Below the pieces are notes generated by a model, which was not told the origin of the DNA, searched no databases, and was given only the letters and a program-made list of their open reading frames with translations. A program made the position numbers and the translations under genes. A stretch of DNA of 64,000 nt from Nemertoderma westbladi (taxonomy: Eukaryota; Animalia; Xenacoelomorpha): contig JAUCBJ010007728.1 in the NCBI GenBank assembly GCA_032718475.1, positions 142,707-206,706 of the forward strand, read 5' to 3'. This document shows positions 2,199 through 32,343 of this stretch, in pieces. Within the stretch, counting starts at the first letter, position 1. Every line of letters starts with the position of its first letter.

Positions 2199-2210
2199 CT
2201 CACTGCGCCA
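2199..2210 (-). promoter_or_regulatory. Primer-binding site, probably tRNA-Ser
   Basis: TGGCGCAGTGAG immediately follows the LTR-terminal CA on the minus strand. Confidence 0.7.
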
Positions 2211-5440: not shown

Positions 5441-5675
5441 TCACCGCTCCATGAAAACAGTAAGTAAGACTGTTTTCACCAATCGAAATATAAAATATTT
5501 ACAAACTACTTCTAAATCTACTGGTAGGGCCTAAAATATAAAATATAATCACTATCTAATTATTGCATACTTAATATTGCAGATACGGCATAAATACATA
5601 CGTACATACATACAAATCGTACAGATCAGAATCGTACAAATCGGTAGGCTCGCAAGCCTTCCTTCCACTCGCTTT

Positions 5676-8600
5676 CTATTCCTTCGCTGAGCGGGCTCGT
5701 CCACGTCCTCTAGTGCGATTGGGGGGTGGTCGAGGTCGAACTGGGCTCGGACTTTGGCGTCGAGTCGTCGGTGGTTCCAAAACGCTAGGAAAGGGAACGA
5801 CGGGAGTTTCGCACATCCGCCGTGCGCTCAATCCTCTAAATCCTCGTCCGATTCCAACTGTCGGCTTAACATCGGATCTAGTCTCTACAACGCTAGGAGG
5901 AAGTCGAAAGGGTAGGACCGTTCCGTCCGTTGACACCTCGCTCTCTGACGTCGTTTGAATCCTAATGGGTTCAGTCAAAGCGTATCCTGTCCCTCCGCGT
6001 GGTTCTCTAGCAAGGGAAACCGTGCCCCGAGTCATCCGGATTTGCGACTTCGATGTCGTCCTCTCGGCGACATTTACTATCTTCTTAATCTCTTGTCCGG
6101 CCTTCTGGGCTTTGAGTATACGAAATTGCTGATCATCCTGTGGGTGACGCGTCTTCTCTGCTAACGGCGTGGCCTTGAAGCCAGTCTCACGCAAAACGTC
6201 GGTCTCGTCCGGAATGCACGAGGTTACGCGTTTGTGATAAAATGCGCTCCAGTATGCCCAAGCTATCGAATGCCAGGCTCCTCGATTCCGCTGTTCAACT
6301 CGCAGTTTATCGAATTCTCCGGCGGTAATCTTGTTCACCACAGTTTGAAAGTTCCAAGTATTCTTGTTGTCGGGGTGCACTTGTAAGAAATAGTCCCGCA
6401 CAATTTTGAATCCACTGTCCAACGGCAATATATCCAATACCTCCAACAATTCATCATACTGAGGCATAGCCGATACATATCCTTCCTTTGACATTATGAG
6501 AGGGTTTACGGCCCAAAATCCCAAATGTGCTCTCATAGGGAAGCGGCGTCGCTGCGTCGATACATGCTCGTCTGCTAGATCCTCCCAATGGTCGAATAAT
6601 TGTCGAACGATTTTAACTGACATGTGCTCATAGGGGACGTCTCTAAGTTGACATTCGGATGCCCTATGGCCCTTAATATTACAATAAGTACACTGCGCCA
6701 CGAAACGCCAGCAAGTGTAGAAAGTGTGCGAACGTGATCCCCGCACCAGTTGCATACTAAATCCGGTAGAGATATGTGCTTCGCTCCGCACTTCTTTGCG
6801 TGATGGCCAGTTGCTCCGCATCTGCCACAAATAGTGTTGGCAGGATACCAAACTCGCTCATAGATGAGATCTCAGATGGGGCGAGCGCTACCGTCCACGT
6901 GATAATTCTCATCATCTGGGTCAGTCGGTATGTTCGTCTCTGTAGGTTGTACACAAACCATGGCGTCTCTTTTCTCCAACTCGCGTATCTCAGTTCGCGT
7001 CTTCCTCGGAAGGTTCTCCTCTATCTCTATGAGTTGCCATAACGGTTCGTCTATTAGCGCCAACTCGGTCGGATCCACATCGTCATGATGGGCGGTAGGC
7101 TCGCGAGCCTTCCAGGATCCTTCCGGGCGTTCGAATTCCGCGTGGCGTTCCCCGTCGTAGGGTACTAACGTTAACATCGACGGTATGTCGACTAGACTTC
7201 CCGCGTGAGTGAGATAGACGTCCCTGAAAACGCTAAGTCCCGCTCGCGTGAAAACTTCGCAGTGCGCATCGGTGTTATAAAAGGGTTGGAGAAATCGTCG
7301 GAATACATCAGTATGCGTCCTTCCTCCATCGTAAAAGGTATGTCCTTCGCCAAGACATAACGGGTGTCGCTTTAGGGTTCTGGATACTACGTCCGCGATG
7401 AAACAAACGTTAACCGAAGATTCTATCGCTAAATAGTATTGCAAGATTATCCGCGGAGGTGAAGTAATCGCCCAATACACGCAACCTCGCCACTTCAACT
7501 GTGACTCAAACTCGTTTACGCTGGGGATATCTCCCTCTCCGTATACGTCCGTGTATTTGTTCCTCTTACTCTCCTTGTAATCCCAACTGAACATTAGATA
7601 TGAGATATAACCCGTCCCAGTTTTTAGCGTGTTATACTCCCTAAAATATCCTTGCTCAATAGCCCAAAGCAACAATAATGGTCTAGTATCCACGTATGGC
7701 GTAGGCAATCGGTCCTCTTCCGTGGGCATCCCTGCAAAGTCGCTAATAAGGTCATCCCGTACACCGGATCCGATCTTGACGATGCTCTTATCCAACACAA
7801 CGTCTCGCACGGCCTTTGGCAACATCCTAGCTTCTATGCTACAAGCCAGGTCCATGGATTTAACTATCCGTTTTATCATCGCGTGTCTTTGCGTCGTTCC
7901 TTCCGGCATAGGCATCTTCCCATCACTCCTCTGTCGGCTGAAGACATGTAACACGCCATCTGGTGCTCTAATCTGTATAGTCTTTGAAGTGAGGCTTTGC
8001 TGATGGCTTCCTCCTTCATTATCGTAAAACATATAACCATTCTCTTTCAGAGATCGGCTAGTCACATCCCAATCGTCGAGTAAATCGTCGGTAGGGTTCC
8101 AAATTCTCCCAATCGACTTTTCATCATCGAAACTAATAGGTTTACCGGTCCAATTGGTCGCGATATCGGTGTCGGTCTCAAACGTTCCAACTCCGATCCA
8201 TAATCGAATCGTTTTCGTCAGATATCCTCGCAAGATACAAGGTGCGATATCCGTCCCCGCGCGATCCACTTCCTTAAAGTCCGTAATATGTGGAGGCACG
8301 TTGCGTACGATTTTTTGAACTATTACTTTACGCAACTCGGCTGATTCTAACACATCACCGAAGGTAACCGATGGGAGGAAATCCAGGTTCGAGATGATCT
8401 CCGGGTGTTCAACTATAGGGATCTCGTAAGTTGTCTCCTTCCGGGTCGGTATACTAATAGGAAAACTAGTTGGTCTCGCAACCGGTACTATCGCTCCAGT
8501 GGAATGGGGCTGAGGTTCTCGCGTCATCTCGACATGAGGTATCTGTAGTCTCTGCGACAAACGCTGAGCAAAGGTGATACTATCGAAGAGCTCGGGTGTC

Positions 8601-9430
8601 ATCTCCTTGGGTTCGGTTTGATCGTGGGATATCCAATAGAATGGTAGGCTCGCGAGCCTTCCGCCGAACTCCTCGATCTCACCTTTCTCGTACGCCTTGT
8701 ATGCCCTGTAGAGGCTCAAAGCTTCCCATTTCTCTTGTGTCGACTTATTAGACTCGTCCACTACCATGCTGTAGACGTCTGGTTCGACTAATTTGGGTTC
8801 GTAAATAACGATCTCACCCGCGTTCGGTCCACTCATTTTAAACGAATGATACGGATTTGTCAAAGGGTATCCGCCTTCTTGGTAACGTAGACTTTGGTGG
8901 TGTGAACATCGCACTAATATCGGCTCGGGGTTCTCCGAGTTCAACCGCATAGGAATCGCGTTGTCTTGCTCGCGCATACACGCTCCACATTTATAAAACA
9001 GTTTGTATATGGAGAACGCGTCCTTGGTCTCTGGATCCGCACCTCGAGCGCGTCTATAAAGATGCATTCCTTCAAATTCGTCTCTAGCTGCAGGTAAGGG
9101 TTCGTTTACTGTCAAATATTGCAGCGTATGATACAATCGGCATATTTCGGTGTCTGGATCCTCGCAAATGTCGCTAGCGTCGCATAACGCATCGTAGGGA
9201 TATAACGCATTGAACTCCGCGCGTAATTCCTCCGTCCTTTTGTTGTATGCATCCAACCGCTGTCGCGTAACATTCGGGTCCGCCTTGGATTTAGCGAGCT
9301 TGGCTGTACTCCTAGCCATACTCTCCACTCCAAACACACTAAAGTTTTTAGCTCCATAACGATTGAATGGCGCCTGGTGCTCTTGTTCTTGCGTAAACCC
9401 TTGACGTAACTCTTTATACATCTTCTCCAT
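5676..9430 (-). pseudogene. ORF3 of element A: DEDD-type 3'-5' exonuclease-like domain plus three zinc knuckles (~1250 aa reconstructed)
   Basis: ORFs 6872-9430 and 5676-6851 join across an in-frame TGA (G in B) and a 1-nt deletion near 6735. Motifs: FYDNEG, TIQIRA, LPKAVRDVVLDKSIVKIGSGVRDD, YVDTRPL, YYLAIES, CGRCGATGHHAKKC, CTYCNIKGHRASEC. Confidence 0.8.
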
Positions 9431-10164
9431 CGTATACGAATATATATGTGGTTACATATCGTTACGTTTCTACTAGATGAAGCACAAAATAGAGGTTAGA
9501 TGTGACGTGACTTAGAGTTTGTCGGCTTTTGGCTCAACTCTGCTCTAAACCCCAACCCATTTGCCTAATGATTTCGGGTTCGCGTGATTTTGCACTGGCT
9601 CCTAATCCAAAAAATGTGCCGATAAAAAACGAATTCCGGGTAAACTAGCCGCGAGTCTAAAATACTCACCTTTTAATTTCCCACGCTACATTTCCCAAGA
9701 AAAATAGTGCAGTTGAGAATTAATTGGTCTAAATAATAGTAGACACGACTACGTAGAACAAGGCCGATTTTCTTTTCCAAAAAAAATTTATCGGTAGGCT
9801 CGCAAGCCTTCCATCCGCTCTTGTCCTCCCCAATTTTAATTTTTATCTAGCTGTATTCTAGAATTTGCTTTTACTGGAGAATCGTTTTTCTTAAATTTAA
9901 ATCCAAATAAATGGATTTATTTAATAATTTTTGAAAATTGTCTCACTTGTGGGTTCCAAGTGGAATTCCATTCCTACTGTACACACAATCCCACTCCTAT
10001 GTGATACATAAGGGTACTACCCTCCATGTTCACGTATAAAGACAATGGAATTCCACCGCTGTCTCTATCTACAGTGAAGAGGATTACAAATGCACGTACA
10101 GTAATACAAATACAAATAACTAAAATACAGTAGGTCTATGTGGTGGCCAATCAAGGTCCCACAT

Positions 10165-13100
10165 CTATTTACTAATATTGGGTGGAGATTTGTAGTCTCC
10201 TGTCTCGTTTCTAGTCTCCTCAAGGAGCACGAGACGTTGTACAGGCCTATCTACGGTACGTCCGTCGATAGTCCTTACAGTAACTGTCCTCACTACACCA
10301 GATGTAGGGTGCGTGGTCAAAATGACTCCAGTCAGCCAAAAACGTCTTTTCAGATTTGCTTCAGCCAATAAAACATGGTCACCACGTCTTAAACATCGGG
10401 TATTTAGATACCAAGAGGTTCTGGTCGAAATAGAGGGCAAATAATATTTCTGCCATATTTCCCAGAATTTATTTGCAAGCAATTGAGTGATTTTCCAAGC
10501 CTTGTTGCCGTATCCGTCACTATCAACGGGTACCGAAATGGGCAACAATGTCGTCGGCGCCTGCATAAGCAGGTGCGCTGGTGTCAAGGCAAACTGTACG
10601 TCGTTATTGTCTGGGATCAAAGCGATCGGTCTAGTATTTAAGATTGCTTCGATTTCTATTAGTAACGTCGTCAGTTGGTCGTCTGTCAAGATGTGTTGCG
10701 TCGGTACGACTTTAGCCATAGCTGTCTTTATTGAGCCAATCAGCCTTTCCCAAACGCCGCCTCTCCACGGACTGTCTGGAGTATTGAAATACCAAACAAT
10801 ACGGTGAGGACGTAGTTCCTCGGAAATCTGGTTTTGGTCCAATTTTCTCAAAGCTCTGGTTATTTCGTTCCGTGCACCCACAAAGTTTGTCCCTTGGTCG
10901 CAGTAAATGGATTTGACCAATCCACGTCTAGCGATAAATCGCCGTAAGGCTAGGATAAAGGCATTGGTGGTCAAGTCTGTCACTCGCTCTATATGGACAG
11001 CTCTGCTGGCCATGCAAGTGAAGATCAATCCCCAACGTTTTACCTGTACCCTTCCGCGTTTCGCGATTATGGATCCCTGTCTCAGTGAAAGGGGGTCTAA
11101 ATGCCTGTAATCTCGCTAGTGGTAGTTCACTCATTTCTTGGTGTCCTATCTTCGCGTGCACCTTCTTACAAATAATACAGTTCCGTGTTACCGAACTCAG
11201 TGCCTTACTAGGTCTAATCAGTACAAACCTCGAGCGTAAGTGTGATAGACAGTGGTGTCTACCTACGTGTTTGAGTTGTACATATGCGTCCAGTATCATA
11301 GCGTGCTGTAATTCATGGTGTTGCGGTATGATGATAGGATACCTAAAGTCAAGTGCAAAGTCGATGTTTTGGAGTCTGGACTTGTGACAAAGTAAGCCCC
11401 GGTAAATAATCGGACTCCAACTCAAAATCGGTGAAGACTTAATCTGTTTACCTTGTTTGATCGCTGTGAATTCTCGTGTGAAATATCGCAATTGATAATG
11501 TCTAATGATATCAACTTCACAGTGGCCAATTTCCTTTAAGGTAAGTCTTCTAGGAAAGTCGCGTTTGCCTCTGGCATATTGTCTCAATCGTTTGAGCCAT
11601 GCTAACTTGCGGCACGCGTCAGTCCATGATCTAGTTAGGTTCACTATCCTGTCAACGTAAGTGTTAGTGACGTCATCAGGTATGGTGTAGTCGTAGTGTG
11701 GATACTTGTCTGGACTTGGTAGGCCCACGGGCCTTCCGGTAGGTTTGTCTGAGTCCCCAAGTACGTCAATCTCTACAGTCTTACCTTTACCGTCCGCACC
11801 TAATGTGTCGACTGGCAGTAACGGTTTCAACTCTACAGTGTCAGTGTGTTCCTGTGAGCCTGTAAGCTTCCTAACCTTAGTCACACGTTTACCTGTAGGT
11901 GGTAAGTCAAGTACCTTCTTTGAGCGGAGTGTAATCCCTGTGGCCACACCTTTGTCATCCAAAGAAGTCGAATTCGGTAAGTCTCTAAAAGTCCACTCCA
12001 ATGGGTCTTCTAATGGAGTGTCTAATAGACAGTCTGGTGAAGCGTCTGGTGAACAGTCTGGTGAGACGTCTGGTGAGACATAGCGCGGAACTTCCGGCGA
12101 AATGTCCTGTCGTTGGTCCCAAATTCTGTCTAGCGTAACTTCTGTCAGAAAGTCTGGTTCAAAGTCTGGTGGACAGTCTGTAGAGATGTCTGGTGGAAAG
12201 TCTGGTGAGACATCCGGTAGACATTCTGTCGAGAGTTCCATCAAACAATCTGGCGAACAATCCGGAGAACAATCTGGTGTCGCTTCTGGTGAATAGTCTG
12301 GCGAGTAATCTGGTGAACAATCCGGCGGAACGTCTGGTGAAATCTCCCGCGGAACATCCGGCAAAGGATTCGTACAAGCGTCTGGTCGAATGTCTGGTGA
12401 GACGTCTGGCGTAATGTCAGGTCTGGCGTCCAGGTCATCAGATTTCGTCCGTCCTTTTTTCCTCTTGACCTTGGCGTTGGCTTTCGCTTTAGACTTGACA
12501 ACCTTGTCGATTTTTATCTCGGCACCCTCTGGTATGGTGTTGGTTGTCGCGTCGAATAACGGTGGCCATTCGTCTGATGGTCGCTGTAGGAAATCGGGTC
12601 CTCTAAACCAAAAGGATTTATTGTCCGGTTTACAAAAGTCAAGCGGTTGCATCCCCCGTGACGCGATGTCAGCTGGGTTCAGCTTCCCTGGACAGTGACA
12701 CCAATCTTGTTTGAGCGACCGGTCTAGTATTTCAGCCCGTCTGTTGGCTACGAAAGTCTTGAACTCAAATGCTTCGTTGTTTATGTACCAAAGTACCAAT
12801 GTCGCATCCGTCCAATATGTGACCTTCAAGTTAGCCTCCAGCTCACGTTGAACTAGACTGACAATATCTGTGGATATCGTCCTGGCTTGCAGCTCCCCAC
12901 GAGGTACAGTCATATACTTCAATGGCATTGTTCTAGCCCTTGAAGTAACGAGAGATACATCGTAGCTGTCCGATGTCACTTGTCGTCTAAGGTATAAGGT
13001 AACCCCCAATCCATCCTTGCTAGCGTCACTAAAGCTGTGAAGCTCTAAATCGGCAGGAAAGGTGGTTTGTAAAGGAAAGTATACCCTCGGTATGGTATAG

Positions 13101-14698
13101 TCTTGTAGGAACGTCAGTTGGGCTTCCCAGTCCCTCCATCGCTCAGCTAACTTTTCTGGGATGGGGTCGTCCCATTCCAGTCCGGCTTGCCAAATGTTGC
13201 GGAGTATGATCCTAGCATGTAGGATCACTGGACTAATGAAACACAGTGGGTCATACAATCGACTCATGGTCGATAAGCAAGTCCTCTTAGTGAGAGGTCT
13301 AGTCTGGTCGTTGGACCTTACACGTACCCTAAAATTGTCGGTGTTAGGGTCCCAACTAAGTCCTAATACTTTGGTCGTCGGCAGAGGTTCTAAGTCTAAG
13401 TCCAAGTCACCTCCACTGCGATCCATCGGGTCAAATGAGTTCACCAGCTCGGGTTCGTTGGAAGCAAACTTCGTCAGGTGAAATCCGCCCTCAGCGAGAC
13501 AATCCTGGAGTTGGTGTGCTACGGTTGTAGCGTGCTCCAAGGTGTCACAACTCTTGAGGCCATCATCCACGTAGAAATCTCGTTCCACGGTCCGAACTAC
13601 TTCTGGCTCAAATTGGTCTCGTGTGTCTAATGCGGTCTGCTTTAATGCGTACATGGTGCAGTTGGGGCTGTCCCTGGCTCCGAATACTCTTACCTGCATT
13701 AGGTAAGTCTCTGGCGGAAGTTGTAAGTTTCCATCCGGATACCAAAGAAACCTCAAACTGTCCCTGTCCCGCTCCAAAGCCTTAACCTGGTGAAACATGG
13801 CCTCTACGTCACAGGTGAAAGCCACTTTGCGTTGTCTAAAACGCATTAGGACTCCCATGAGGTAATTGTTCATATTCGGCCCGTTCATCAGTTCGCTATT
13901 CATAGACATCCCTTGGTAAAGTGCAGCGCAGTCGTTGACTACACGCACCTTGCCAGGTTTGTCCGGGTGTCGAACAAAATGATGTGGCAGGTAATATGTC
14001 TGGTCTGTGGTTACCTCGGGATTTAACATCCTAATGGCGTATCCCTTTTGGAGATACGTCTGAAGTTGTGCATTGTATTGCATATGGGCCGTCTCGTCTC
14101 GCAACAATCGCTGCCTTATTGATTTGAGTCGCCTCAAAGCAAGCGGGTAATTGTTAACGAGCTTAGGTTGTCCATTGCGCCACAACATACCAACCTCATA
14201 GTGGCCATTCGCAGTCTGGCGAATGGTATCTCTCATAATATTTAATGACCGTTTTTCCTGTTCTGACATAGCGGTCTCGTAACCGGGTTCTGCTGAGTCC
14301 TGTTCCAACCATTGTATGGTCCGTTCAGTCAGCAGTCGGTCAAGCGCTGCTTGCACTGCGCCATGGTCCTCGTCCACGTCTTCGTCCGCTGCGGTGGCTA
14401 GTGTCAATGTGTCTGGTAGGCTCGCAAGCCTTCCGGTGTGACTAGTCGGCGTCGAATCGTCGTGCGGCTGTTTGACAACCTTTTGATCTGTCGGTAGGCT
14501 CGCAAGCCTTCCAAGATCAACGACCGGTGTCGAAGCCTGGTGGGTGGGGTCAATGACCTTCGGACTTTTCGGTAGTCTCGCAAGCCTTCCAAAATCCTCG
14601 TTCATCGAGTCATCCACGGCAACAACCCTTTGGTCTTCAGTAGTCAATACAACCTGGTCTACTGCATGTAGTTGTAAGTCAGAGGTCCGTGTGGTCAT
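10165..14698 (-). pseudogene. pol: pol of element A (RT, Pao-type RNase H, integrase), disrupted
   Basis: FYVDDG, HSFSDAS, CIIC, YCDQGTNF and GGVWERLI are present. A small deletion near 11070 removes the DCFG segment present in B (first integrase Asp) and shifts the frame. Confidence 0.92.
12030..12430 (-). repeat. 12-bp coding minisatellite (PDxS/PDxx repeats) between RNase H and integrase of A
   Basis: Repeated TCTGGTGA/CCAGAC units encode SPDY, SPDC and SPDV. A related tract lies in B at ~23620-23940. Confidence 0.85.
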
Positions 14699-14779
14699 GT
14701 CCAGATCGGTTACGTCAGTATCGGTGGCGTCTGCGTTAGTGACGCAAGTCTGTCGTAGTGCCGTCCATACAATTGGACA

Positions 14780-16374
14780 AGAATTTCAACTCATTTAAAT
14801 TGACCGCTACAAATTAATTGCATTTGTCTGTACCAATGAGACTGTAGTTATTTGATTGTAACCAATGTCGTGCAAGTTATATATTAGCTGGACCAATAGT
14901 TATCTTTAAAATCCTGTTAGAACCTATAGAACAATCGAGAATTTTCTCGATTGATTGCAGCACAAATTTGCTATATAAAGGTGCGATTTGTTCATTAGTT
15001 ATCAATCTTAATCTATCTCTCTATATTCAATTATTCTGAGTTATCTGATATTTGTTTATTCTGTTATTAGTATTCAGATTACATTTTGTATTATTATCTG
15101 CAATAAATTCAGAAATACCGCTATCTGCTTTTCTTTCACCATGATTCACTACGGTGAACAAACTTAAGAACAGGATGGCCGGCTAGAGATCGGGCCGCAG
15201 CAATGAACGGGAACATCAGGGGAATGTAGACAAGAGACAACCCGCAATACCATCTCAGTTATTCGCCCATCGCCTGAAAGGTTAGACAGCGTTCGACGCC
15301 TTGCTACCTAAGCGTAAGACCAAAGATCAAAAGGTAGAAGTAGTGACACGCTGTGAGCCTAAAATTACATCTTAGGGACTGTACTGTTTTAATTCAGGAA
15401 AACCACGGTAGACCTTCACATTCCTTTAACTCTTGCTAATCCCTTACTCATTAACTCTTGCTAAGTACAGGTGTGTGTGCGACTATTTGTAGTACGACAG
15501 TGTCCATTGCATTAGAACTTGTAGGCTAGGGGGGTTGCTGTGTTTTCACCTGAATTGGGATTGTACCATTCAGGCGGTAGGGCAGTTTACACTAGGCGCA
15601 AATAAATTGAGGCTATCAGGGATACTAACATCTACCGTGTCCCCGCCAACGCCCTAATAGGAAGTTACCCGGACTACCTGGGTGACTAAAATTCTAGATA
15701 GGAGCCAGGATAGCTATTAGTACCTGTACGCCTACAGTAGTAAACTAACACATCTCTTCTTAGTATCAGGGACCTGGTACCTAAAATTGCCGAATTCTGG
15801 GCGTAGCATTAACCCTATGCCTGAATTTGAGTCCTGGAAATACGCAAGAGGGGAAGGAACCTTATCATTCGTGAGTATTAGACCTACAAGTTACAAAATT
15901 AGAATATTCGTAAAATGCACACCGTACCCAGTAATTATATATGTGAAGGAGCAAAACTGTTTTGACCGTTCAGAATTAACACACGCGCGTTAGAAATTAT
16001 TTACACCTCAAAATATATAAAATTAACTTTGTCCGTACTGTGCTTTGCCCGCTAGTTAGACATCTCCAAATCTCTGCCTGTACCTAGCTAGCGTCTCTTC
16101 GCCCAACCATATAAATCACACCGCGGCAAAGTATACAAGCCCCTTAGTCCGTCAGTGAGTCAGCCTGATTTTAGGATTCGCTGCGCGGGATTTTGTTTTA
16201 TCGAAGTTTGTCTGCTCGTAGACTGTTTTCTGCCTCACCGGTTATAAGAGATCGATACTGCAATATATTCGCTTACTTAGAGTTTACTGTTTTGGTGAGA
16301 AGGTCGGATTTATGATTTGATTTACAAACTTTACAGTAGGATATTGCAGGTATTGTTACCGTCTCTTCCAATTA
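14780..16374 (+). repeat. 5' LTR segment of B (shared with 32344-34032)
   Basis: Near-identical direct repeat; the chance ORFs 15787-15993 and 33445-33651 differ at one residue. It starts abruptly at the junction with A. Confidence 0.9.
14833..14980 (+). promoter_or_regulatory. Putative LTR Pol II promoter (three CCAAT boxes and a TATA box)
   Basis: CCAAT near 14833, 14862 and 14893, TATATAAA at 14972, AATAAA near 15103. The same layout recurs in the 3' copy, and CCAAT plus TATA recur in A. Confidence 0.55.
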
Positions 16375-17184
16375 GTAGGAATATGTTTTACTGAACTACG
16401 GTTCGGTAGGACTAAAGTTATTTGAAAATTTTGTATTTTGAGGTAAAAATTTGTATTTGATTAGCTAAGTGCTAATTTTTTGAAATAAAATTTGATTTGA
16501 ATCGCGTGTAAAATATTTTTGGAATTGAATACCGGTGTTTAAAAGGGTTTAAATACCATATTGTACCGGTACAAAATTTTTCGTAAAAGTAAAACCTAAC
16601 TCTTTTGTTTTTTCAGGATTCAGAACTCATTTCTAGACTGTAACGGGAGCAAGACCGTGTTTAGCAAGTTTGGGAGATAGATAACTCAACAACTTTGGTT
16701 GAGAAAATCGTGTTTCGTCCGCAACGCTGAAAACGGAAAGGTTCACGTCCGGTTTGTATCTGGGAATCTGTTTTTCTGGAGAATTATTGGAGTGGGTGAG
16801 TTCGAAAAGTTGCATAAATAAGTTAGGCATTACCGTATTAGTTAAAATTATTGTGGGTTCCACTGTCTCAAGTATTTATGCATTCCGTATGATTTCTTTG
16901 TTCATTGCTGAATTAGTCCGTATTATTGTATTTAATTTACCTTTTGATAACGCATATCGTTATCCGATTTATTTGTTATAAAATTGGCCGTTAGGCTAAT
17001 TTTATTATATACTTATTCCGTGACATTTATTTGCTGTAAAATTGGCCGTTTAGGCTAATTTTATCCATCTGCTATAAAATCGGCCGGTAGGCTAATTTTA
17101 TAAGACTGTAATTAGTACCGTTTTATACAAATACGGTAAGTTCGATACTTTGACACTCACTTTACTTGACTTATAACTACCGAA

Positions 17185-20100: not shown

Positions 20101-23100
20101 TTCTTAAAATTAGAAGATGTGTACCTTTTAATATCCAGGGAGGCAGTAGTAGAAACTCGATCTAACTACACTGACCAGCACATCGTGGCAGAAGGGATCA
20201 CCTTGCCATCCTCCAACCGACAAAAACCCCAGACAACATCCACTAAGACGGCCACTTACACCACACCGACGGAATCACGACAATTCTCGGACGGTAGTAG
20301 GGTATCTGCGCCCATTGGGACAAAACAGACGAGACAACAACTCGGTACCGACTTCAGCGGCTGCCAATACTGCGAGCATCTAGGCAAGCGGTATATCGGT
20401 CACAAGTTGAGGGGTTGTCGACAATTTCGCGAGTTGAACTCGGAAGAACGACGGCTGCAAATACGGCCATTGGACTCTTGTTGGCGGTGTACGCGACACG
20501 GACACGTCCGTAAAGATTGCCCAAATACCGACACTTGTCCATCCTGTGGACGCAACCACGACGGTCTGCTCCACACAGACAGCCACACGCCGACAAAACG
20601 CTTCGCCAGGGAACACCCGGAAGCAGCAGCGAGATGTGATGCGGCCTACCGAAAACGAGAATCGAAAACGACTCCAACCTTCGTGACCCATATTGAGGAT
20701 TGCTTCTCAGAACAATCCGGATCGTCGGACGAAGAGTTAGAAGACGACGACGAATATTCCAATGGAGACGAACAACCGTCGATCGCGCTTCTGACTACTG
20801 ACCAACTGAAGGGATTCAGTGTAATTCCGATTAAGATTACTGGCACAAAGGGGAGCAAAAGAATCTACGCGATTCTAGATTCAGCCTCATCTCATAGCTA
20901 CGTGGATGAAAAGATAGCTGACGTAGTGACGGATCTTAAACAAGGTAAGCGCGTCAGTTATACCGTAAGTAGTATGCACGGACAGCGTGCAATACCAGTG
21001 ACACGAGTTAAGTTGGACTTAGACTCTCTTCTTCCAAAATCGCAACACAGCGAGAGGGAGAGGTCTTTGTTACCCTTTAAAGATCTAACCTTTGCGGCCA
21101 CGAAGGACTTTAGTAACCTACTAGGTCCAGTGCCGGAACAATCTCTAGAGGACCGTAAGTATTTCAGACACCTTGGTGTACCCGAATGTCCTGTCAATTA
21201 TAGATCGGTAGCAATGCTGATCGGGACGGACCAATTCAACCTACATCAGGTGTGGGAAACCAGACCATCGGCAGTCGTAGCGGGAAACGCATACGCCTGC
21301 AGAACGCCGATAGGGTGGTATACTCGAGCGCCTGTGCGCACACTAGACGTAAGTGACGAGGAAGACGATGTACAGAGTACATGTAGTTTATTAACTACAA
21401 ATTCAATTCATTCCTTTTCACACGACGTGAACCATACTACACTACAGTCGACAAAACATGACAGACGTGTAACTAGTATGATAAGTCACAAGGAGCAGCT
21501 AACCCACCAGGTGAGTTTAGAACTTGGGGAGAAGACGAGTCAGCTAGAGACTCCATCGACGACAGATGATAGGCTTGCGAGTCTACCTACCCCAATAACT
21601 TCAACAATGCCCGTCGAGATCGACGATGACGCGTTGAGAAATCATCAGTTGGAACAAGCTGTACTAGACAAAGAATTAACGGAGAAGACTATCAGGTGGT
21701 TAGAACAAGATACAGCTGAACCTGGTAGCTACGAACCTTGTATGTCGGAACAGGAGAAACAATCTCTGAAGATCATGGAAGATACTATCCGCCAGACGAA
21801 AGACGGACATTATGAGGTAGGGATGTTATGGCGTAGCCAAAGTCCTAAACTTATAAACAACTATCCACTAGCCTTGAGACGTCTACACTCAATACGGCAA
21901 CGTCTATTAAAGGACGAGAAAGCCCATCTGCAGTACAACACTCAGATGGAGACGTATTTGACAAAAGGATACGCTATCCGAATGACTAACCCGGAAATAG
22001 TGACTGACCAAACCTATTACTTGCCACATCACTATGTGAGACACCCCGACAAACCAGATAAAGTACGCGTAGTCAATGACTGTGCGGCTCTGTTTGAGGG
22101 AATGTCCCTCAATAGTGAGTTGATGGATGGACCAAACATGAATAATTATCTTATGGGGGTGATTATGCGCTTCCGTCAGCGTCAAGTAGCTTTTACTTGT
22201 GACGTTGAAGCGATGTTTCACCAAGTGAGAGCGTTAGAGCGAGACAGAGACAGTTTGCGGTTCCTCTGGTACCCGGAAGGAGACTTAAGTCTACCACCGG
22301 CGACTTACCAAATGCAAGTTCGCGTTTTCGGTGCCAGAGACAGCCCAAATTGCACGATGTACGCCCTAAAGCAGGCCGCTAGAGATCAGAAACATCTATA
22401 TGACCCAGAGATAATTAGGATTGTGGAGCGTGACTTTTATGTAGATGACGGTTTACAGAGTTGCGACACAGTAGAACGTGCTACAACAGTAGCACATCAA
22501 TTACGGGACTGCTTAGCGGGCGGAGGTTTTAACCTCACCAAATTCGCCTCAAACAGTGCCGAATTAGTAGACTCATTCGGGACGACTGAGCGTGGTGGTG
22601 GTGACATAGACCTAGAGTTCGAACCACTACCGACGACTAAGGTGTTGGAGCTCTTTTGGGACCCAAACACAGACAACTTTCGAGTGAAAGTGAGACTGGA
22701 CAGTCAAGAGAACACACTGACAAAGAGATCATGCTTGTCAAAATTGAGCCGATTGTTCGATCCGTTAGGATTCATCAGTCCAGTGATACTGCAAGCCCGC
22801 ATTTATATGCGCAGTATATGGAAGGATGGACTAACATGGGACGAGCCGATCTCATCAGACCAAGTGGACTTATGGAAGACCTGGGAGGCGGAATTATCTT
22901 CGCTAGAGGATTATTCCATACCCAGGGTTTACTTTCCATTACAAAGTACATTTCCTGACAACTTGGAACTACACTGTTTTTCTGACGCCAGTGACAACGG
23001 TTTTGGTGTGGCAGCGTACTTGCGCAGACAAGTAGAATCAGACGAGTTCGATGTTTCGCTCATTACTTCTAAGGCTAAGACCATGCCTACTAAGTATATG

Positions 23101-25844
23101 ACGACACCACGAGCCGAGCTACAAGCCGCAACCCTGTCAACCACCATCGTGAACCTCATACAGACAGAACTACAGTCGAGTTTACAGATATTTTATTGGA
23201 CTGACGCGACGTTGGTTTTATTTTACATAAACAACGACACACTCGAATTCAAGACATTCGTAGCTAACCGTCGCGCGGAAATTCTAGACCGTTCAATAAA
23301 AGAGGATTGGCGACATTGTCCCGGACCACAAAACCCAGCTGATATTGCGTCGCGAGGAATGATGCCTGAGGAATTCTGTAAACCGGAGAACAAAGAATTT
23401 TGGCAACACGGACCCCAATTCTTGCAGAAATCGACACAAGATTGGCCTCCGTTATACGACAACAAATCTAACACTATCCCTAAGGACGCCGAAATCAAGA
23501 AACCAAAAAAGGGGAAGACAAAGAAAAAGACGACGGCGGCAAAACTCAAGAAAAAACCGAAGGCGAAATGGAAAGATATAACTTCAAAGGTCAAGAGAGG
23601 AAGACTTGCGAGCCTTTCTACACCAGACATATCGCCAGACGGTCAACCAGACACGTTACTAGACGGTCAACCAGACGTTTTGCCAGACATATCACAAAAT
23701 GTTCTACCAGACACTAGTGACATACTGACAAACAGTAAAGCCGCAGTTTCCCTATTGGAGCGGCCTTCTATTGACAAACAACCAGATACGTTACCAGACG
23801 TATCGCCAGACACATTACTAGACAGTCGACTAGACATTTTGTCAGAAACATCACAAAATGTTCTACCGGACATTAGTAATGTATTGACTAACAATAAAGC
23901 CGCAGTTTCCCTATTGGAGCGGCCTTGTATTGACAAACTACCAAATTTGACACACTTGAGCAACCATAAGCACGGTGAAACCTCATGTATTACAGATGTG
24001 GGTAGTACCTACGCTAATGTAAATACAGGTGTTACTCTGCGCTCAAGAGACATACCGAACTTGCAACCTATGGTGAAACCTGGGATTAATATCGGCAGAA
24101 AAATAAGTTTACCGAAAGCCACTGATCCCACAGAGTTCAAACCACCATTAACGATCGACTTACAAAGTACCGACAATCAAGGTAAGAAGACAAAGAAGGA
24201 CAAATTACTTGTAGACCCGGACGGATCAACAGTCAACAAGGGATTACCTACCGGCGGACCCGTGGGCCCTTCTAGTAATTCAAAACCTTCCAAAATCTCC
24301 ATTGACTTACCTGATGACGTCACAAATACTTACGTCGACCGTATTGTAAACCTAACAGATTCTTGGACAAACGCTTGCCGAAAATTAGCGTGGATTGTAC
24401 GTTTTGTACAATACGTTAAAGGCAAACGTGACTTTACACGTCGACTTACATTGGCTGAGATTGACAGGTGTGAGATTAAATTAATTCGCCATTATCAACT
24501 GCGATATTTCGCGCGCGAATTCACATCCATAAATCAAGGTCAACCAATCAAGTCGTCACCAATACTGAGTTGGAGTCCGATTATTTATAATGGCTTGATT
24601 TGTCATAAATCTCGGCTTCAAAACATTGACTTTAACACAAACTTTAGGTACCCAATAATAATACCGCAACATCACGAACTACAACGTGCAATGATACTGG
24701 ACGCACATTTACATCTGAAACACGCTGGAAGACACCACTGTCTTTCCTACTTACGTACTAGATTTGTATTAATTAGACCCAGTAAAGCATTAAGTTCAGT
24801 GACACGTACGTGTATTATTTGTAAAAAGGTACATTCTTGAATAGGTACCCAAGAAATGAGTGAACTACCACAAGCACGACTTCAAGCATTCAGACCACCT
24901 TTTACAGAGACTGGAATTGATTGCTTTGGTCCCATACATACGAAACGTGGACGTATACTAGTAAAACGCTGGGGACTGATTTTCACATGTATGTCCAGTA
25001 GGGCAGTTCATAATGAACGTGTGATGGATCTTTCCACCAACGCGTTTATACTAGCATTGCGGCGATTTATCGCTAGACGCGGACTAGTGAAATGCTTGTA
25101 CTCAGACCAAGGGACAAACTTTGTTGGTGTTCGGAATGAGATTGCTAGAGCCTTTAAGAAATTAGATCATGATCAAATCTCGAACGAACTACAACCTCAT
25201 AAGATTGTTTGGAAGTTTAATCCTCCAGATAGTCCATGGAGAGGCGGAGTCTGGGAGAGATTGATTAGATCTATCAAGACAGCCATGGCAAAAGTCATTC
25301 CAGTAAACCACATACTGACAGACGACCAACTGACAACACTGTTTGTTGAAATCGAGGCAATACTAAATACTAGACCAATAGTATTAGTACCCGATGACAA
25401 ACAATCTCAATTCGCTTTGACACCGGCACACCTGCTAATGCAGGCACCGACACCACTTTGACGCCGATTTCTATTCCAATAGAAAGCGACAGCTACGGTA
25501 GAAAAGCGTGGAAAATCACGCAACTACTGGCTAACAAATTCTGGGAAATATGGCAAAACCATTATTTGCCCTCTATTTCTGCCAGAACAAACTGGTACAA
25601 TAACACCCGCGCATTAAAGCCGGGAGATCACGTGCTGTTAGCGGAAGTGAATCTAAAAAGACGCTTCTGGATAACAGGTGTAATTTTAGCCACACATCCA
25701 TCCATGGATGGAGTGACAAGAACTGTGACGGTACGGACAATTGACGGTCGTACAGTAGACAGACCGACTCAACGTCTCGTACTTCTTGAAGAGACTCGTA
25801 ACGAGTCTGGAGACTACAAATCTCCACCTAATACTAGTAAATAA
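17185..25844 (+). pseudogene. gag-pol: gag-pol of element B (~2880 aa reconstructed): coiled-coil N-terminus, Pao gag, zinc knuckles, protease, RT, RNase H, integrase
   Basis: PKFSG..W..F..EKFNYL, CWRCTRHGHVRKDC, ILDSAS, FYVDDG, FSDAS, H..H..CIIC, IDCFGP, SDQGTNF and GGVWER. Lesions are in-frame stops at 18562-18564 and 24838-24840 and a frameshift near 25455. Confidence 0.93.
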
Positions 25845-25947
25845 TTAGGAGTTTACAAATAGATTTCCACGTACCTGTACACCGTAGTAAGGACAGCGGT
25901 AGAATTCCATTGTCTTTATATGTGAACATTGAGGGTAGTACCCTTAT

Positions 25948-26991
25948 TAGGGTAGGTCGATTTTTACTTTTTTTGGATATCTAGATTTTCTCATTGATAA
26001 AAAGTGGCCTTGGGTCCTAAAACTTTGTAGAAACGAAATTTTAACTCCTAAAAATCATGTTTGACCCCTGCACTGGACGTCGTCCAGTTCCCGCCCTAGC
26101 CGCTAGTGAGTCATTTTCCCAATTATTGTGATGATCAACTTCTAGTATTCCTACCGCATTGATATTATGCTCATTAGAACCGCAATGACCGATTTAGTTG
26201 GTGTAGACACCTTCAAAACAAGCATAGAGCGAGTAGTTTTTGAGATATTGCAGAATATGTGAAGTCCGGTACAAGTCAACATTAGCGCCTTGATGCGGTA
26301 TTGACAAATACACTAAAAATGATACTTCTAATTATCTCAAGGCATCCACAATTTACACATAACTGCAGTGATCAATTTAGGGGATGTTGAAACTCTAATA
26401 ATATGAGTTCAGTGATTAGTTCTCGAGTTATTGTACAAAACGTCTGGATTGAGTCAGCTCAATATAAGGTCATTAATTGGTGGACATAACCTTGACATTT
26501 TGTACAATAACTCGAAAACTAATCACTCAATTAATATTTTTAGAGTGTCAACATCCCCTAAATTGATCATTGCAGTTATGTGGGAATTGTGGTTGCCTTG
26601 AGAAAATTAGAATTATAATTTTTAGTGTATTTGTCAATACCGCATCAAGGCGCTAATGTTGACTTGTACCGGACTTCACAAATTCTGCAATATCTTAAAA
26701 AACTACTCGCTCTATGCTTGTTTTGAAGGTGTCTACACCAACTAAATCGGTCATTGCGGTTCTAATGAGCATAATATCAATGCGGTAGGAATACTAGAAG
26801 TTGATCATCACAATAATTGGGAAAATGACTCACTAGCGGCTAGGGCAGGAACTGGACGACGTCCAGTGCAGGGGTCAAACATGATTTTTAGGAGTTAAAA
26901 TTTCGTTTCTACAAAGTTTTAGGACCCAAGGCCACTTTTTATCAATGAGAAAATCTAGATATCCAAAAAAAGTAAAAATCGACCCACCCTA
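25948..26991. mobile_element. Non-autonomous hAT-type palindromic (foldback) MITE, 1044 bp
   Basis: Termini TAGGG...CCCTA and an 8-bp TSD ACCCTTAT (25940-25947, 26992-26999). Near-perfect inverted arms of ~495 bp surround a ~50-bp spacer. The empty site is visible in element A near 10010. Confidence 0.92.
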
Positions 26992-27312
26992 ACCCTTATG
27001 TGTCACATAGGAGCGGGATTTGTAGGTATAAGAAATGGAATTCTACTTGGAACTCACAATATTTAGACAATCCATTTGGATTTGAAAAATTTTTAAAAAA
27101 AAAAAATTTTCTCCAGTGAATAGATTTCAGGGTCCAGTCGGGTGGAACTTAAAATTAGAGAAACAAGAGAGGAAGACTTGCGAGCCTTTCTTAAAATTTT
27201 AATTAAATTTTACACGGTCTTGTTTCAATAAGTTACGTCAAAATAGACTCCCCTATATATTTATTACTAATTCTTGACTGCTTATTTTCTGATAATAGTT
27301 TGGGATCAAAAA

Positions 27313-27520
27313 GTGAGTATTTTAGACTCACAGCCAGTTTAGCCCAAATTCGTTTTTACTTCGGCAAAAAAAAAATTTTAGATAAGAAGCAGCGTGTCAT
27401 TAAAGAAACCCTAGATCTTAGGCTATGGGTAGGAGGTTAGAGCGTTGTCGAGCCCAAAGGGCAGACGAAACTCTCACGTCTCCTCACAACTAACTACAAA
27501 CTCTGTTGTATTCCCTCTAG
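27313..27520 (+). promoter_or_regulatory. Putative intron upstream of ORF3 in B (counterpart in A at 9473-9669, minus)
   Basis: Donor GTGAGTATTTTAGACTC, branch-like CTAAC, pyrimidine tract and TCTAG acceptor are conserved in both elements. Confidence 0.6.
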
Positions 27521-27550
27521 TAGTAATGATTATGTAACTACACCCTAATT

Positions 27551-30500
27551 ATGGAGAAAGGGATACAAGGAGAGCCGAGATGGGGATATGATATCCAAGA
27601 GGAGGCAGCAGCGCCATTCGAAAGATTTGGAGCCAAGGACTACACTATATTTGGTATAAAGGAATTATCGGAAAGTACAGCGAAACTCGCGAGAACTAAA
27701 TATGACTCGAACGTATTAAAGAGAAGGCAAAACGCATTAAACGAAAGAATCGAAAGTTTGCGCCAAACCTTCAACGAACTTTACCCGTACGATGCTTTGT
27801 GTGATACGGGAGACATTAGCGAAGACCCCGATACTGAAATTAGTCGTTTGTATCATACCATGCAATACCTAAAGGCGCACGAACCTATGCCCGTGGTACG
27901 CGATGAATTTGAAGGAATGCATCTTTACAGACGAACTCGAGGGGACGATAGATAAACCAAGGAAGCATTTTCAGTTTATAAACTTTATTATCAATGCGGT
28001 TCTTGTATGCGCGAACAACGAAATGCGATCCCGATGCGTTTGAATAAGGAAAATCCCGAACCGATATTGGCGAGGTGTTCGAATCATCAACAACTACGCT
28101 ACCAGGAAGGAGGGTATCCTTTATCGAATCCATATCATTCATTTGCTATGACCGGACCAAAGGCGGGAGAAACTGTCATTTACCCACCTAAGGTTGTTGA
28201 ACCCGATGTATTTGAACTTACGCTGGACGAGGCGAATCAGTCAACCCGCGAAAAGAAAGAAGCTCTTAGCCTATACAGAGCCTACAAGGCTTTCGAGAAA
28301 GGTGAGATGGAAGAATGGGGTGGAAGACTCGCGAGCCTACCTTGCCATTGGACGTCACACGATCAAACTTCAGCTAAGGAGATGACACCGGAAGTTTTCG
28401 AGAGCATAAACTTTGCTCAAAACGTTATTCAGAGACTACAGATTGCATCCCCGGAGAGGCCAAGAGAAATGCAACCGTATAGTACTTCAACTACGAAACC
28501 ATTGAGTACGACACTCAATTTCCCTATTAGTATACCAGTCCGACAGGATACGACGTACGAAATACCCATCGTGGATCATCCAGAAATCATTTCAAACTTG
28601 GAGTTTCTTCCTGCAGTTGTTTTCAGCGATATGAGTAAGATATATGATTTACGTAGACATATTACTCAAAAGGTCGTGTACAACGTTCCACCTCATATTC
28701 AAGATTTCAAGGAACTGGATAGAGCTGGTGCCGATATAGCTCCGAGTAATCTGAAAGGATATCTAACCAAGACGATTCGTTTATGGATTGGAACCGGAAC
28801 CTTCGAGTCGGATACAGATATTGCCGCAGATTGGCGAGGTAAGGTTATTCGTTTCGATGAGGATAAGGATATAGAGAAGATTTGGCAACCTTCGGAAGAA
28901 TTGTTGGATGAATGGAATAGGACGTTTAGATCGTTTCAGGAAAACGGTTACATGTTTTACGATAACGAGGGCGGCAGTCATCAGCAGAGTTTGACTTCTA
29001 AGACTATACAGATTAGAGCGGCGGACGGAGTCCTGCACGTTTTCAGTAGACAGAGGAGCGACAAACGAATGCCGATACCTCCAGCGAATACAAAGCGACA
29101 CCATCTTATCACCGATATAGTAAAGAAGATGGACCAAGCTTGTAATATTGACGCTAGAATGCTACCGAAGATGGTAAGAAACATGATTTTAGATAAAACT
29201 GTTGTAAAGGTTGGATCAGGAGTAAGGGAGGATTTAATTAGCGACTTCGCCGGCATGACGGACAGCGATGACCGACTACCGACACCTTACGTCGACACTC
29301 GACCTCTTATTCTGTGGTCTATAGAACAGGGATATTTTCGTGAGTATAATACTCAGAAGACTGGAACTGGATACATTTCCTACCTGTTATTCAATTGGGA
29401 TTATAAGGAAGGTAAGAGAAACAAGTATATTGAAACTTATGGAGAAGGTGATACTCCAGATATGAGTGAGTTTGAATCACAGCTTAAATGGAGAGGATGC
29501 GTGTATTGGGCTATTACGTCACCTCCAAGAGCGGTCTTACAATATTATTTAGCAATAGAGTCGTCAGTGAATGTTTGCCTAATCGCCGACATTGTGTCTC
29601 GGACTCTCAAAAGACATCCACTTTGTCTCGGAGAAGATCATACGTTCTACATGGAAGGGAGAATTCGTACCGACGTGTTTAGACGATTCCTTGAACCCTT
29701 CTACAACTCCGACGCTCAGTGTAATGCCTTTACTCGAGCAGGATTTAGTATATTTCGAGACGTGTATCTTCGCTGTGCGGGATCTCTTATCGAAAGACCA
29801 TCTATGTTTACATTGTTACCCTATGAAGGAGAACGTATCGTGGAAATTACGGATGAATCACGGCAGACGCGCGCGCCTATCGGTCACCTTGGTGATGAAT
29901 TCGAAGTAACTACTACGATCGCCGACGATCCTTTAGAGGAACTTCTTGAGATAGAAAGGAACCTCCCGAAGAAATCTCAGACGGAGATTCGACAACTTGA
30001 AGCAACAGATGCTATAGTTTGTATACAACCTTCAGAAACCTACCAACCCATAGACCCAGATGATTACGATTATAGTATGGGAGGAAGCGCTCGACCGATT
30101 GGAGATCTTATATACGAACGAGTGTGGTACCCTGCCAATACGATGTGTAGTAAATGTGGCGTCGCTGGACATCATATGGCAAAGTGCAGTGGAAAGCACA
30201 TTACTACGACTCAGCTAATCTGTGGATGGTGTGGGGATCAAGGGTCTCATACCTTTTATACTTGCTGGAGATTTATGGCTCAATGTACTTATTGCAATAT
30301 AAAGGGACATCGAGCATCTGAATGCCAACTAAGAGACATACCTTATGAACACGAATCTGTAAAACTCGTGAGGAAATTATTTGATGAGTGGGAAGATTTA
30401 GCCGACGAACATGTATCGGCACAAAGAAGACGGTTTCCGATGAGAGCGCATCTCGGATTTTGGGCGGTAAATCCCCAAACGATGATGTCGGAAGGATATA

Positions 30501-31276
30501 TCTCCGCTATGCCCCAATATGACGAACTTATCGAGGTTGTCGATATTTTGCCCCACGACAGCGGATTCCGAGTGGTGCGCGAGTATCTACTACAGATTCA
30601 CCCGGATAACAAAAACACGTGGAATTTTCAGAAAGTCGTTAATCGGATTACGTATGGTGAATTCGATCGTTTCCGAACTGAAAAGCGGAACAAGGGAGCT
30701 TGGTTAACCGTCGCATGGGCGTACCGAGCCGCGTTTTACCACAAACGTATACGAGCGAGCGTATTCGAGGAAGAGGAGGTCCTAGAGGCGACGAATATAC
30801 CAGCCACTCCGGTTGCGCCGTCTGCACGTCACCCTCGGGAGGACGGGCAGGGTAGGATCATACGGGTCCAGAAAGTGGGCCAACAATTAAAGAAAATTAT
30901 TAATGTAGAAGAACGCAAGGGAGTTGAGCCGACCATTCGAGTTACTCGGGATACGGTATCACTTCCAAGAGAACCAGTAGGAGGATCGGGACATACACCA
31001 GCTGATCAACAGGGGGCGCAAGCCACTCTTGGGTCTGCGTCGTCCGCCTTTCGCGCGTTCCCAGACGTTCTACCAACTGTAGTGACGACTGATCGGTCAC
31101 GAGGAATCGGTCGAGGTTTTGGGATGCCAAATAGACGAATTTGCGAGGAAATAGTCGCACCGTCTCTCAACGTCCCAAGTAAACCAGTGACTCGCCCCAT
31201 TAGTCCCATATCGCGAGCAAAGTCACCTGTGCGCAGTTTTCGAGGACGCGGCAGGGCTCGATCCACTAAGCGATAA
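27551..31276 (+). pseudogene. ORF3 of element B: DEDD-type 3'-5' exonuclease-like domain plus three zinc knuckles (1241 codons, one premature stop)
   Basis: 27551-27955 and 28007-31276 are in frame, separated by a single TAA (E in A). Exonuclease-like motifs lie at ~28940-29600. Knuckles CSKCGVAGHHMAKC, CGWCGDQGSHTFYTC and CTYCNIKGHRASEC lie at ~30146-30325. The C-terminus is RG-rich. Confidence 0.82.
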
Positions 31277-31354
31277 AAGGGAGGGCAAGGGTGGACGGAA
31301 GACTCGTGAGCATTTCTTATGATTTTGTGATTTATTTGAATTTATATTTATATT

Positions 31355-31900
31355 TGTGCTTATTCCGAACTTATGCAATTTGTATTGTTCCGAATTTATG
31401 AAATTTAGAAATAAGAACTTATATTTTAGTAAAACTTATATTTAGTAAGACTTATATTTGTAAGAATTTATATTTTATATTTACGTGATTATTTCGAACT
31501 TATGCAATTTATATTATTCCGAACTTATGCAATTTATATTGTTCCGAATATTATGCAATTTATATCTTATAAGCAGTATTTGTATTTACAGTGAAACAGA
31601 AAGTAAGAGTAGATGGAAGACTCGTGGGCCTTTCTTATAGTTTTATTTGTAAAGTGTTATATTTTGTATTTAGAAAGTTTTATAGTCAGAAAATTTTGTG
31701 CTTAGAAAGACTCATATTTGTAATTATTCCAAACTTATGCAATCTACATTTAGGTACGAAAGTATTTGTAATTACTTGAATTTATGCAATATTTGAGATG
31801 CAATAGTAGATGGAAGACTCGCGAGCCTTTCTTATTGTTTTCATTTATTTGTATTTGTAATTGTTTGAATTTATGCAATATTGAGATGCAATAGATTTAT
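31355..31900 (+). repeat. AT-rich short tandem repeats in the 3' UTR of B
   Basis: Multiple TTCCGAACTTATGCAATTTATATT-like units interleaved with copies of the 20-nt palindromic motif. Confidence 0.75.
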
Positions 31901-32252
31901 ATTGGTGAATTTAATTTAGATTTATATTGTACTTACTTAGTAAAGCCTTAAATACGTAAAGTTTGAATTTGTAATTATTTTGTATCGAATCATTACGTAG
32001 AAAGGAAGTATTGTTTGAAATTTAATTGTAAATATGTAAGTACGCCCTAAGTATTCTATAGTTTGATTGATTATTGGTGAAAACCGTATATTTTATGCAC
32101 GATAATATCCTGTTTTCATGGAGCGGTATAGAATTATATTCCCTAAATGCCGTGGATTTTCAAAATTTTATTTTATTCGGATTAACTTTGTAAAGATTGC
32201 TTTGAGTTCTCATTCGTATTGGTTCTATCATTTGTGCACCTATCGGTCAAGT

Positions 32253-32339
32253 GGTTCAGTAGCTCAGTCGGTAGAGCGTTGGAAATTATATGTGTAGTAG
32301 GTATTGAGTTCGAATCCTAGTAAGTGCGAATTATTTTTT
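32253..32339 (+). ncRNA. tRNA-derived/Pol III promoter-like unit in the terminal region of element B
   Basis: A box TAGCTCAGTCGGTAGAGCG, B box GAGTTCGAATCC (32306-32317) and a T6 terminator-like run at 32334-32339. Confidence 0.6.
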
Positions 32340-32343
32340 GTAC

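Follow-up and report, generated by a model that had tools for sequence, protein, structure and literature searches.

Why should a 20-nt palindromic motif recur through two neighbouring retrotransposons, inside and outside their coding sequences, and what might read it? The question is raised by a 64,000-nt stretch of the genome of Nemertoderma westbladi (GenBank assembly GCA_032718475.1, contig JAUCBJ010007728.1, positions 142,707 to 206,706 of the forward strand), hereafter the window, in which two elements, A and B, carry 20 copies of the motif at nine loci. The comparisons set out below indicate that the motif is a real cis element, selected and dispersed, and that the BEL/Pao lineage carrying it is unusual. 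Our favoured reading, to which we assign a probability of roughly 0.45, is that it would form a sense-strand RNA stem-loop read by the knuckles of an element-encoded protein, most likely the product of ORF3, the third open reading frame (ORF). The carriers are BEL/Pao long terminal repeat (LTR) retrotransposons, as their Pfam domains, LTRs and reverse transcriptase-RNase H-integrase (RT-RH-IN) order show:

3147..14779, minus strand: element A, a 5'-truncated BEL/Pao LTR retrotransposon with pol, ORF3 and a 3' LTR (~3147-5211)
14780..34032, plus strand: element B, a BEL/Pao LTR retrotransposon with PF03564, PF05380, PF18701 and an LTR pair
~14780-16374 and 32339-34032, plus strand: LTRs of B
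17170-25844, plus strand: gag-pol of B
~27550-31276, plus strand: ORF3 of B

Element A, recognized by PF05380 (E 3.6e-40) and PF18701 (E 7e-19), lacks gag and the 5' LTR, and both elements are broken by stops and frameshifts, those of B being in-frame stops and one frameshift. With BEL/Pao elements (Belpaoviridae) they share a DUF1759 Gag, Peptidase_A17, DUF5641 and the order protease (PR)-RT-RH-IN, while the extra ORF3, the dispersed motif and a tRNA-like module adjoining the 3' LTR go beyond the usual plan. Their closest RT-RH relatives are ~41-44% identical, the named ones coming from cnidarians, molluscs, echinoderms, fish and other aquatic animals.

Against a chance baseline provided by an order-3 Markov model of 3147-34032 (31 kb, 100 simulated runs), 17 sites with at most four mismatches to the perfect palindrome are observed where 0.02 are expected per run. 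An earlier note on this DNA had listed 18 copies, and the motif stands at every one of those coordinates; two further copies are the one at 11718 in A and the one at 24253 in B, the latter found as the orthologue of the former. Because A and B are homologous, the 20 copies count as nine independent loci, spaced 0.65-2.7 kb along both elements; six of these are shared by A and B as orthologues, each keeping 14-19 of 20 bases, and three hold two or three copies through tandem amplification. The copies are as follows (UTR, untranslated region):

5643..5662, minus strand: A 3' UTR; orthologue of 31297
7094..7113, minus strand: A ORF3 linker, KAREPT phase; orthologue of 29862
8643..8662, minus strand: A ORF3 N-part, GRLASLP phase; orthologue of 28322
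9793..9812, minus strand: A pol-ORF3 spacer; orthologue of 27171
11718..11737, minus strand: A RH-IN linker, newly found, C8-G13 closing pair; orthologue of 24253
14415..14590, minus strand: three copies (14415, 14493, 14571) in a 78-bp tandem, A PR-RT linker; orthologous to 21568
17273..17292, plus strand: B gag N-terminus
19004..19107, plus strand: two copies (19004, 19088) in an 84-bp tandem, B gag
21568..21587, plus strand: B PR-RT linker, with G6 and U15
23599..23618, plus strand: B RH-IN linker
24253..24272, plus strand: B, newly found via orthology, double changes G4-C17 and C8-G13
27171..27190, plus strand: B pol-ORF3 spacer, position 9 C/T polymorphic among family copies
28322..28341, plus strand: B ORF3 N-part
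29862..29881, plus strand: B ORF3 linker, double change G8-C13
31297..31831, plus strand: three copies (31297, 31615, 31812), B 3' UTR

The 78-bp triplication in A and the 84-bp duplication in B are both present, as the note had described, and its observation that the motif occurs in two coding frames and in UTRs is borne out by nine copies in the GRLASLP phase, five in the KxREPT phase and six non-coding ones; most of the 14 coding copies (of 20) are located in protein linker regions. The absence it reported from the LTRs, the satellite and element C also holds, the closest match in A's LTR, B's two LTRs, the 416-bp satellite, element C and bases 1-3146 having 7-8 mismatches. A covariance model built from the 20 copies found no further match in the 64 kb below E 1.3, and the sense strand of the element scores best for all 20, as claimed, the model deriving from those same copies and 21568 being nearly tied (26.0 vs 24.0 bits). 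One candidate orthologous pair (B 24727 and A 11244-11263, minus strand) combines a good stem with a CCAC loop (E 1.3 and 3.9), the A member showing a reciprocal 3-18 pair relative to that of B:

24727..24746, plus strand: candidate atypical copy with CCAC loop in the integrase HHCC codons of B, not significant alone

That selection acts on the nucleic acid is indicated by what the two elements have kept. A and B agree at 28% of four-fold degenerate sites (n=372), i.e. these are saturated, and their non-coding regions are ~40-57% identical, yet inside four orthologous coding copies 12 of 13 four-fold sites are identical by hand count (p 2.8e-6; two of the four pairs were chosen by motif match in both elements), and of the two orthologous UTR pairs one retains 14 and the other 17 of 20 bases. 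Since the motif is kept while four-fold sites are saturated, the constraint appears to act on the nucleic acid, as the earlier note had proposed with a check on synonymous sites in mind; a protein-level repeat is ruled out by the two codon phases together with the UTR copies. The B family is covered end to end in three sequencing runs of one organism, and among its copies the only substitution at a frequency of at least 1% in 130 nt around 27171 falls on loop position 9, the flanks being as invariant as the motif, which leaves this comparison without power as a test of constraint. A diverged contig present in runs X1 and X2 (27174-27234) resembles B from a point inside the motif onwards, its upstream flank being unrelated, hinting that a third subfamily keeps a motif copy at this place.

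The pattern of changes within the motif bears on the form in which it is read. Its loop is always YGYG (UGCG in eight, CGCG in six, CGUG in four and UGUG in two of the 20 copies), with G10 and G12, which would be exposed in the folded loop, invariant in 20/20. C9>T occurs at five loci and C11>T at three, with no mirror G>A changes (sign test 0.008), and C19>T at five loci as against G2>A at one; because a C>U change preserves pairing, as G·U, on the sense strand alone, this asymmetry favours a sense RNA stem-loop over a DNA site bound by a homodimer. CpG decay as the source of YGYG is excluded by the lack of CpG depletion in the internal regions of the elements (observed/expected 1.10-1.18) and by the absence of mirror G>A changes. 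The closing pair 8-13 is UA in 16 copies, CG in two, GC in one and UG in one, and thus complementary in 20/20, with a further double change at 4-17 in 24253; the covariation score is 0.228 vs 0.147 +/- 0.023 for shuffles, a value matched by one of 500. Sense-hairpin energies range from -7.6 to -9.6 kcal/mol in seven of the eight A copies and from 0 to -4.2 in the 12 B copies.

Knuckle proteins that could read such a loop are encoded by the elements themselves. ORF3 follows pol in both A and B (70% identical over the aligned part) and comprises, in ~1,240 codons, an extra N-terminal region, an exonuclease-like part, three knuckles and a C-terminal domain:

28856..29701, plus strand: probable DEDDy/WRN-like 3'-5' exonuclease domain of B ORF3 (ESM Atlas lead; homologue P0002)
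~7274-8122, minus strand: probable DEDDy/WRN-like exonuclease domain of A ORF3
30146..30328, plus strand: three CCHC-type knuckles of B ORF3, candidate reader (from sequence; PF00098 E 0.0035, below cut-off)
20362..20574, plus strand: Cys/His knuckle cluster of B Gag, alternative reader (from sequence; PF00098 E 0.0083, below cut-off)
16795..27520, plus strand: putative GT..AG intron yielding a spliced ORF3 mRNA (one contig of run X4)

The middle of ORF3 is a probable DEDDy-type exonuclease. An ESM Atlas match, a lead only, points to a WRN-type exonuclease (score 0.91, 151 of 256 features, PF01612 on 38% of the cluster), no Pfam family was matched at E 0.01, and matches in the PDB are at chance level only. 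Searches for homologues gave at most three matches, of which only P0002, a 558-amino-acid protein from a 7,460-nt ENA contig with 26% identity to ORF3, aligns outside the knuckles; the DxE, D and YxxxE/D strings of ORF3, which we take to be the acidic motifs of a WRN-type enzyme, align with it. P0002 has the same order of exonuclease-like part, knuckles and C-terminal domain, and hence the module exists beyond this host. A spliced ORF3 mRNA in B is weakly suggested by one contig (run X4, guessed to be a DNA run) that links 16794 directly to 27520, its shorter side spanning 29 letters and its putative donor and acceptor sites resembling the consensus. The putative acceptor has five of the 12 B motif copies downstream of it, and the B leader is free of copies.

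A knuckle protein is proposed as the reader because the loop geometry matches that of retroviral tetraloops bound by nucleocapsid (NC) proteins. As described in parts of PMC7599994, the knuckles of HIV-1 NC bind the guanosines at loop positions 2 and 4 of stem-loops SL3 (GGAG) and SL2 (GGUG), and the N-terminal knuckle of Rous sarcoma virus (RSV) NC binds G218 of the UGCG tetraloop of mu-Psi SL-C; according to the available text of PMC5035970, a change of the RSV UGCG cost 10,000-fold in NC affinity. Like the fold proposed here, those hairpins have a short stem and a tetraloop; in them the guanosine at loop position 2 (in HIV-1 also that at position 4) enters CCHC pockets, positions to which the invariant G10 and G12 would correspond, and UGCG is the commonest loop here (8/20). 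The retroviral hairpins are single, differ from one another and lie within one 5' leader signal, whereas here one sequence stands at nine loci through gag, pol, ORF3 and UTRs, with none in the LTRs or 5' leader. Among the functions listed in the earlier note, a packaging or export signal fits less well in its classic form, because five of the 12 B copies are downstream of the putative splice acceptor: the classical Psi is a single 5'-leader signal favouring unspliced RNA, and the motif is neither.

BEL elements generally carry Gag knuckles. The ORF3 knuckles are preferred over them because other BEL loci lack the motif and show no ORF3 match, and because the five B copies just mentioned would lie in spliced RNA. 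The motif was not found in the first 8 kb of element C or in 79 other BEL loci (582,942 nt; best E 1.4), and tblastn with ORF3 gave no match in the same sequences. In a de novo control for dispersed repeats 76 of the 79 loci have at most three clusters, the other three (L042, L043, L050) reflecting 6-7-kb duplications (L042 and L050 were checked; L043 is on the same contig as L042); A scores 6 and the halves of B 3 and 5, which makes the test not very sensitive, and a looser version does not separate the 5' half of B from background. A scan of viral contigs gave one single-copy match before a T-rich run, judged unrelated.

From the repetition, orthology, nucleic-acid conservation, loop polarity, closing-pair covariation and presence of knuckles in ORF3 and Gag, which are observed, we would build the following model. 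The motif, kept at nine loci, would likely fold in vivo into a sense-strand stem-loop whose YGYG loop would be bound by CCHC knuckles, most likely those of ORF3, with the Gag knuckles as a second candidate within the same model; binding would tag element transcripts over their whole length and amount to private recognition of self RNA. The favoured outcome would be a coated, protected ribonucleoprotein that brings the 3'-5' exonuclease domain of ORF3 onto element RNA, and the benefit might be a shield from small-RNA silencing or decay and help with particle loading.

A substantial body of observations weighs against this model, and it mostly concerns the fold. Ten of the 12 B copies have an A·C mismatch through G6>A (at eight of nine B loci), the A6/C15 combination being absent only from 21568 and one other B copy; the sense hairpins of these mismatched copies reach only 0 to -3.4 kcal/mol at 37 C and are equally or more stable on the antisense strand (seven B copies computed at 15 C give about -3 to -6 kcal/mol). 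In context, mean stem-pairing probability is 0.00-0.39 over the 11 B copies covered, with two copies of A dropping to 0.21 and 0.55 as well. C15 is kept without a pairing partner, which points to sequence readout; the arms would thus be read as sequence as well as structure. The C19>T/G2>A asymmetry is tempered by G>A being common in the B background. Covariation is unremarkable by two of five measures (178/500 and 65/500), related sequences can beat such shuffles and relatedness inflates such tests, and template switching at palindromes could also give symmetric changes. As for the reader, the control loci are mostly short, seven of the 63 with an integrase end extending more than 3.5 kb beyond it; with so few reaching past integrase, the link between motif and ORF3 rests on one lineage. 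The AlphaFold models of ORF3 are unusable (pLDDT 28.6 and 31.1), and in a later study, by the available text of PMC5035970, changing the RSV UGCG to GAGA did not reduce Gag specificity. The hairpin with a YGYG loop for knuckles, foreseen in the earlier note, stands as the best-supported option on the strength of loop and covariation, with B copies that fold weakly, and the covariation check which that note had proposed gave a score beaten by almost no shuffle alongside the two unremarkable measures. A co-evolving reader had seemed provable from concerted evolution (A6 in B vs A loci, Fisher p 0.0014), but this test leaves B's G>A drift out of account: where element A has G at a synonymous site, B has A in 43-57% of cases, the five of six parallel changes have p 0.05-0.19, and as the drift can explain much of how A and B differ at position 6, co-evolution specific to each family is not established.

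Unpaired but conserved arms are what a double-stranded DNA (dsDNA) site would predict, and the strongest competitor, rather unlikely in our estimate, holds that two GRWAGRC half-sites around a 6-bp spacer are bound by an element-encoded protein with a VANC-like anti-silencing role, possibly through the Cys/His-containing N-terminus of ORF3, which would keep the integrated element open in satellite chromatin. The A at half-site positions 2 and 6 on both arms (21568), the even spread and tandem amplification of the copies, like those of VANC targets, and the residence of the elements in the 416-bp satellite speak for it. A homodimer, however, should tolerate mirror changes equally, and the counts are 5:0, 3:0, 5:1 and 1:8; all copies are sense-oriented, complementarity of 8 and 13 in 20/20 has no DNA-level reason, CpG is not depleted, and ESM Atlas found no match and no DNA-binding fold for ORF3 residues 1-300. 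The parallel with the VANDAL/VANC system of Arabidopsis Mu-like DNA transposons, drawn in the earlier note, is apt for an element-specific, tandem-amplified motif with an element-encoded accessory protein as candidate reader. It stops there: in the available text of PMC5735166, VANC21 recognizes dsDNA motifs of 8-9 bp that lie outside coding sequence, and its effect is loss of DNA methylation, whereas the present motif is a 20-nt covarying palindrome, coding in 14 of 20 copies, always sense and without CpG depletion. An RNA counterpart of VANC can be imagined, in which a spliced DEDDy-exonuclease/three-knuckle protein would dock on a private hairpin every 1-2.5 kb and its nuclease would act on, or protect, only own-family RNA against small-RNA silencing, but we hold this fuller version to be a speculative and unlikely one.

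That the position-6 difference needs no co-evolving reader (p 0.05-0.19, as above) also agrees with a reader supplied by the host, be it an adaptor for the export or transport of RNA, a transcription factor or an insulator factor, whose sites the elements gathered. We regard this as distinctly unlikely, since the motif is missing from element C, from the left-hand gypsy-like fragment and from the satellite of the same genome, and has no Rfam match (a scan of 3100-34100 gave three sub-threshold matches, none on the motif). Quite improbable, too, is self-complementary pairing that would align two genomic RNAs in register, as kissing loops or extended duplexes. YGYG describes exactly those 4-mers able to pair with themselves when G·U wobbles are allowed, the restriction of loop changes to C>U would be explained without a protein, the UGCG copies pair better in sense than in antisense, and self-duplexes reach -30.7 to -34.9 kcal/mol in seven of eight A copies, but those of B are much weaker (-8.2 to -23.9 kcal/mol), copies are also present in putative spliced RNA, and pairing alone would not keep the arm sequence between saturated families. 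Neutral by-products, i.e. copies of a palindrome that template switching or local duplication had multiplied and that linkers tolerate, are very improbable, for all that most coding copies sit in linkers, local duplications are frequent in both elements and a perfect hairpin in A's tRNA-like module suggests that symmetric copying occurs, as six orthologous loci keep 14-19 of 20 bases despite saturated four-fold sites and non-coding regions ~40-57% identical, and internal mismatches persist uncorrected.

The interest of the locus lies partly in ORF3. DEDDy-like ORF3 proteins occur in the bdelloid LTR retrotransposons Juno and Vesta and in Athena/Terminon elements, where, in the available text of PMC5408684, catalytic activity is not shown and the function is unknown; as here, the gene is a third ORF downstream of pol, with a typically spliced message. 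The LTR lineages treated in that text are Juno, Vesta, TelKA and Mag, the carrier here being BEL/Pao, and it describes no repeated cis motif. The function of such proteins in retroelements has been open since their description, and the motif is now a specific candidate for their partner in cis: a 20-mer whose natural variants differ in loop and stem, so that the question can be addressed directly by binding assays. If Gag, Pol and ORF3 put up with amino-acid changes so that one signal persists at nine places, the LTR element would also carry a dispersed self-recognition code, in contrast with single retroviral leader signals. With ORF3 as reader, an animal would harbour an RNA-protection system that is sequence-specific and encoded by the element itself. 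In the literature covered on BEL/Pao exonuclease ORFs, dispersed palindromes or stem-loops and LTR anti-silencing (including parts of PMC12859917; few subscription journals, and Repbase outside the coverage) neither the motif nor such an arrangement is described, and neither a comparable tag dispersed through coding regions nor a DEDDy ORF3 in BEL/Pao came to light.

The setting of the elements offers further observations. A and B are embedded in the 416-bp satellite, A (at 3147) and C (at 55982) adjoining the identical position of its unit in opposite orientations, which may reflect a target preference for the satellite, and the right end of B adjoining a different position. B's 5' LTR lacks its first 5 nt, is fused straight onto the truncated pol of A and is chimeric, the first 650 nt being 87% and the remainder 99.7% identical to the 3' LTR. 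The tRNA-like module, with A-box, B-box and T-run, adjoins the 3' LTR (5220-5300, minus strand, in A; 32245-32330, plus strand, in B), where a polypurine tract, none being evident, would be expected; part of A's module is the long perfect hairpin noted above. ARAGORN and Rfam made no call on the module, which may be a Pol III promoter, an insulator or a plus-strand priming device; self-priming by it is unsupported, 19% of 452 windows pairing equally well. The RH-IN linker is expanded in both elements by degenerate 12/24-nt repeats encoding (S/P)PD-rich peptides (12020-12430, minus strand, in A; 23622-23943, plus strand, in B). Finally, a 1,053-nt foldback insertion at 25940-26992, 94% self-inverted and with 8 letters fitting either side, is missing from other family copies in all four runs compared and is probably a non-autonomous DNA transposon.

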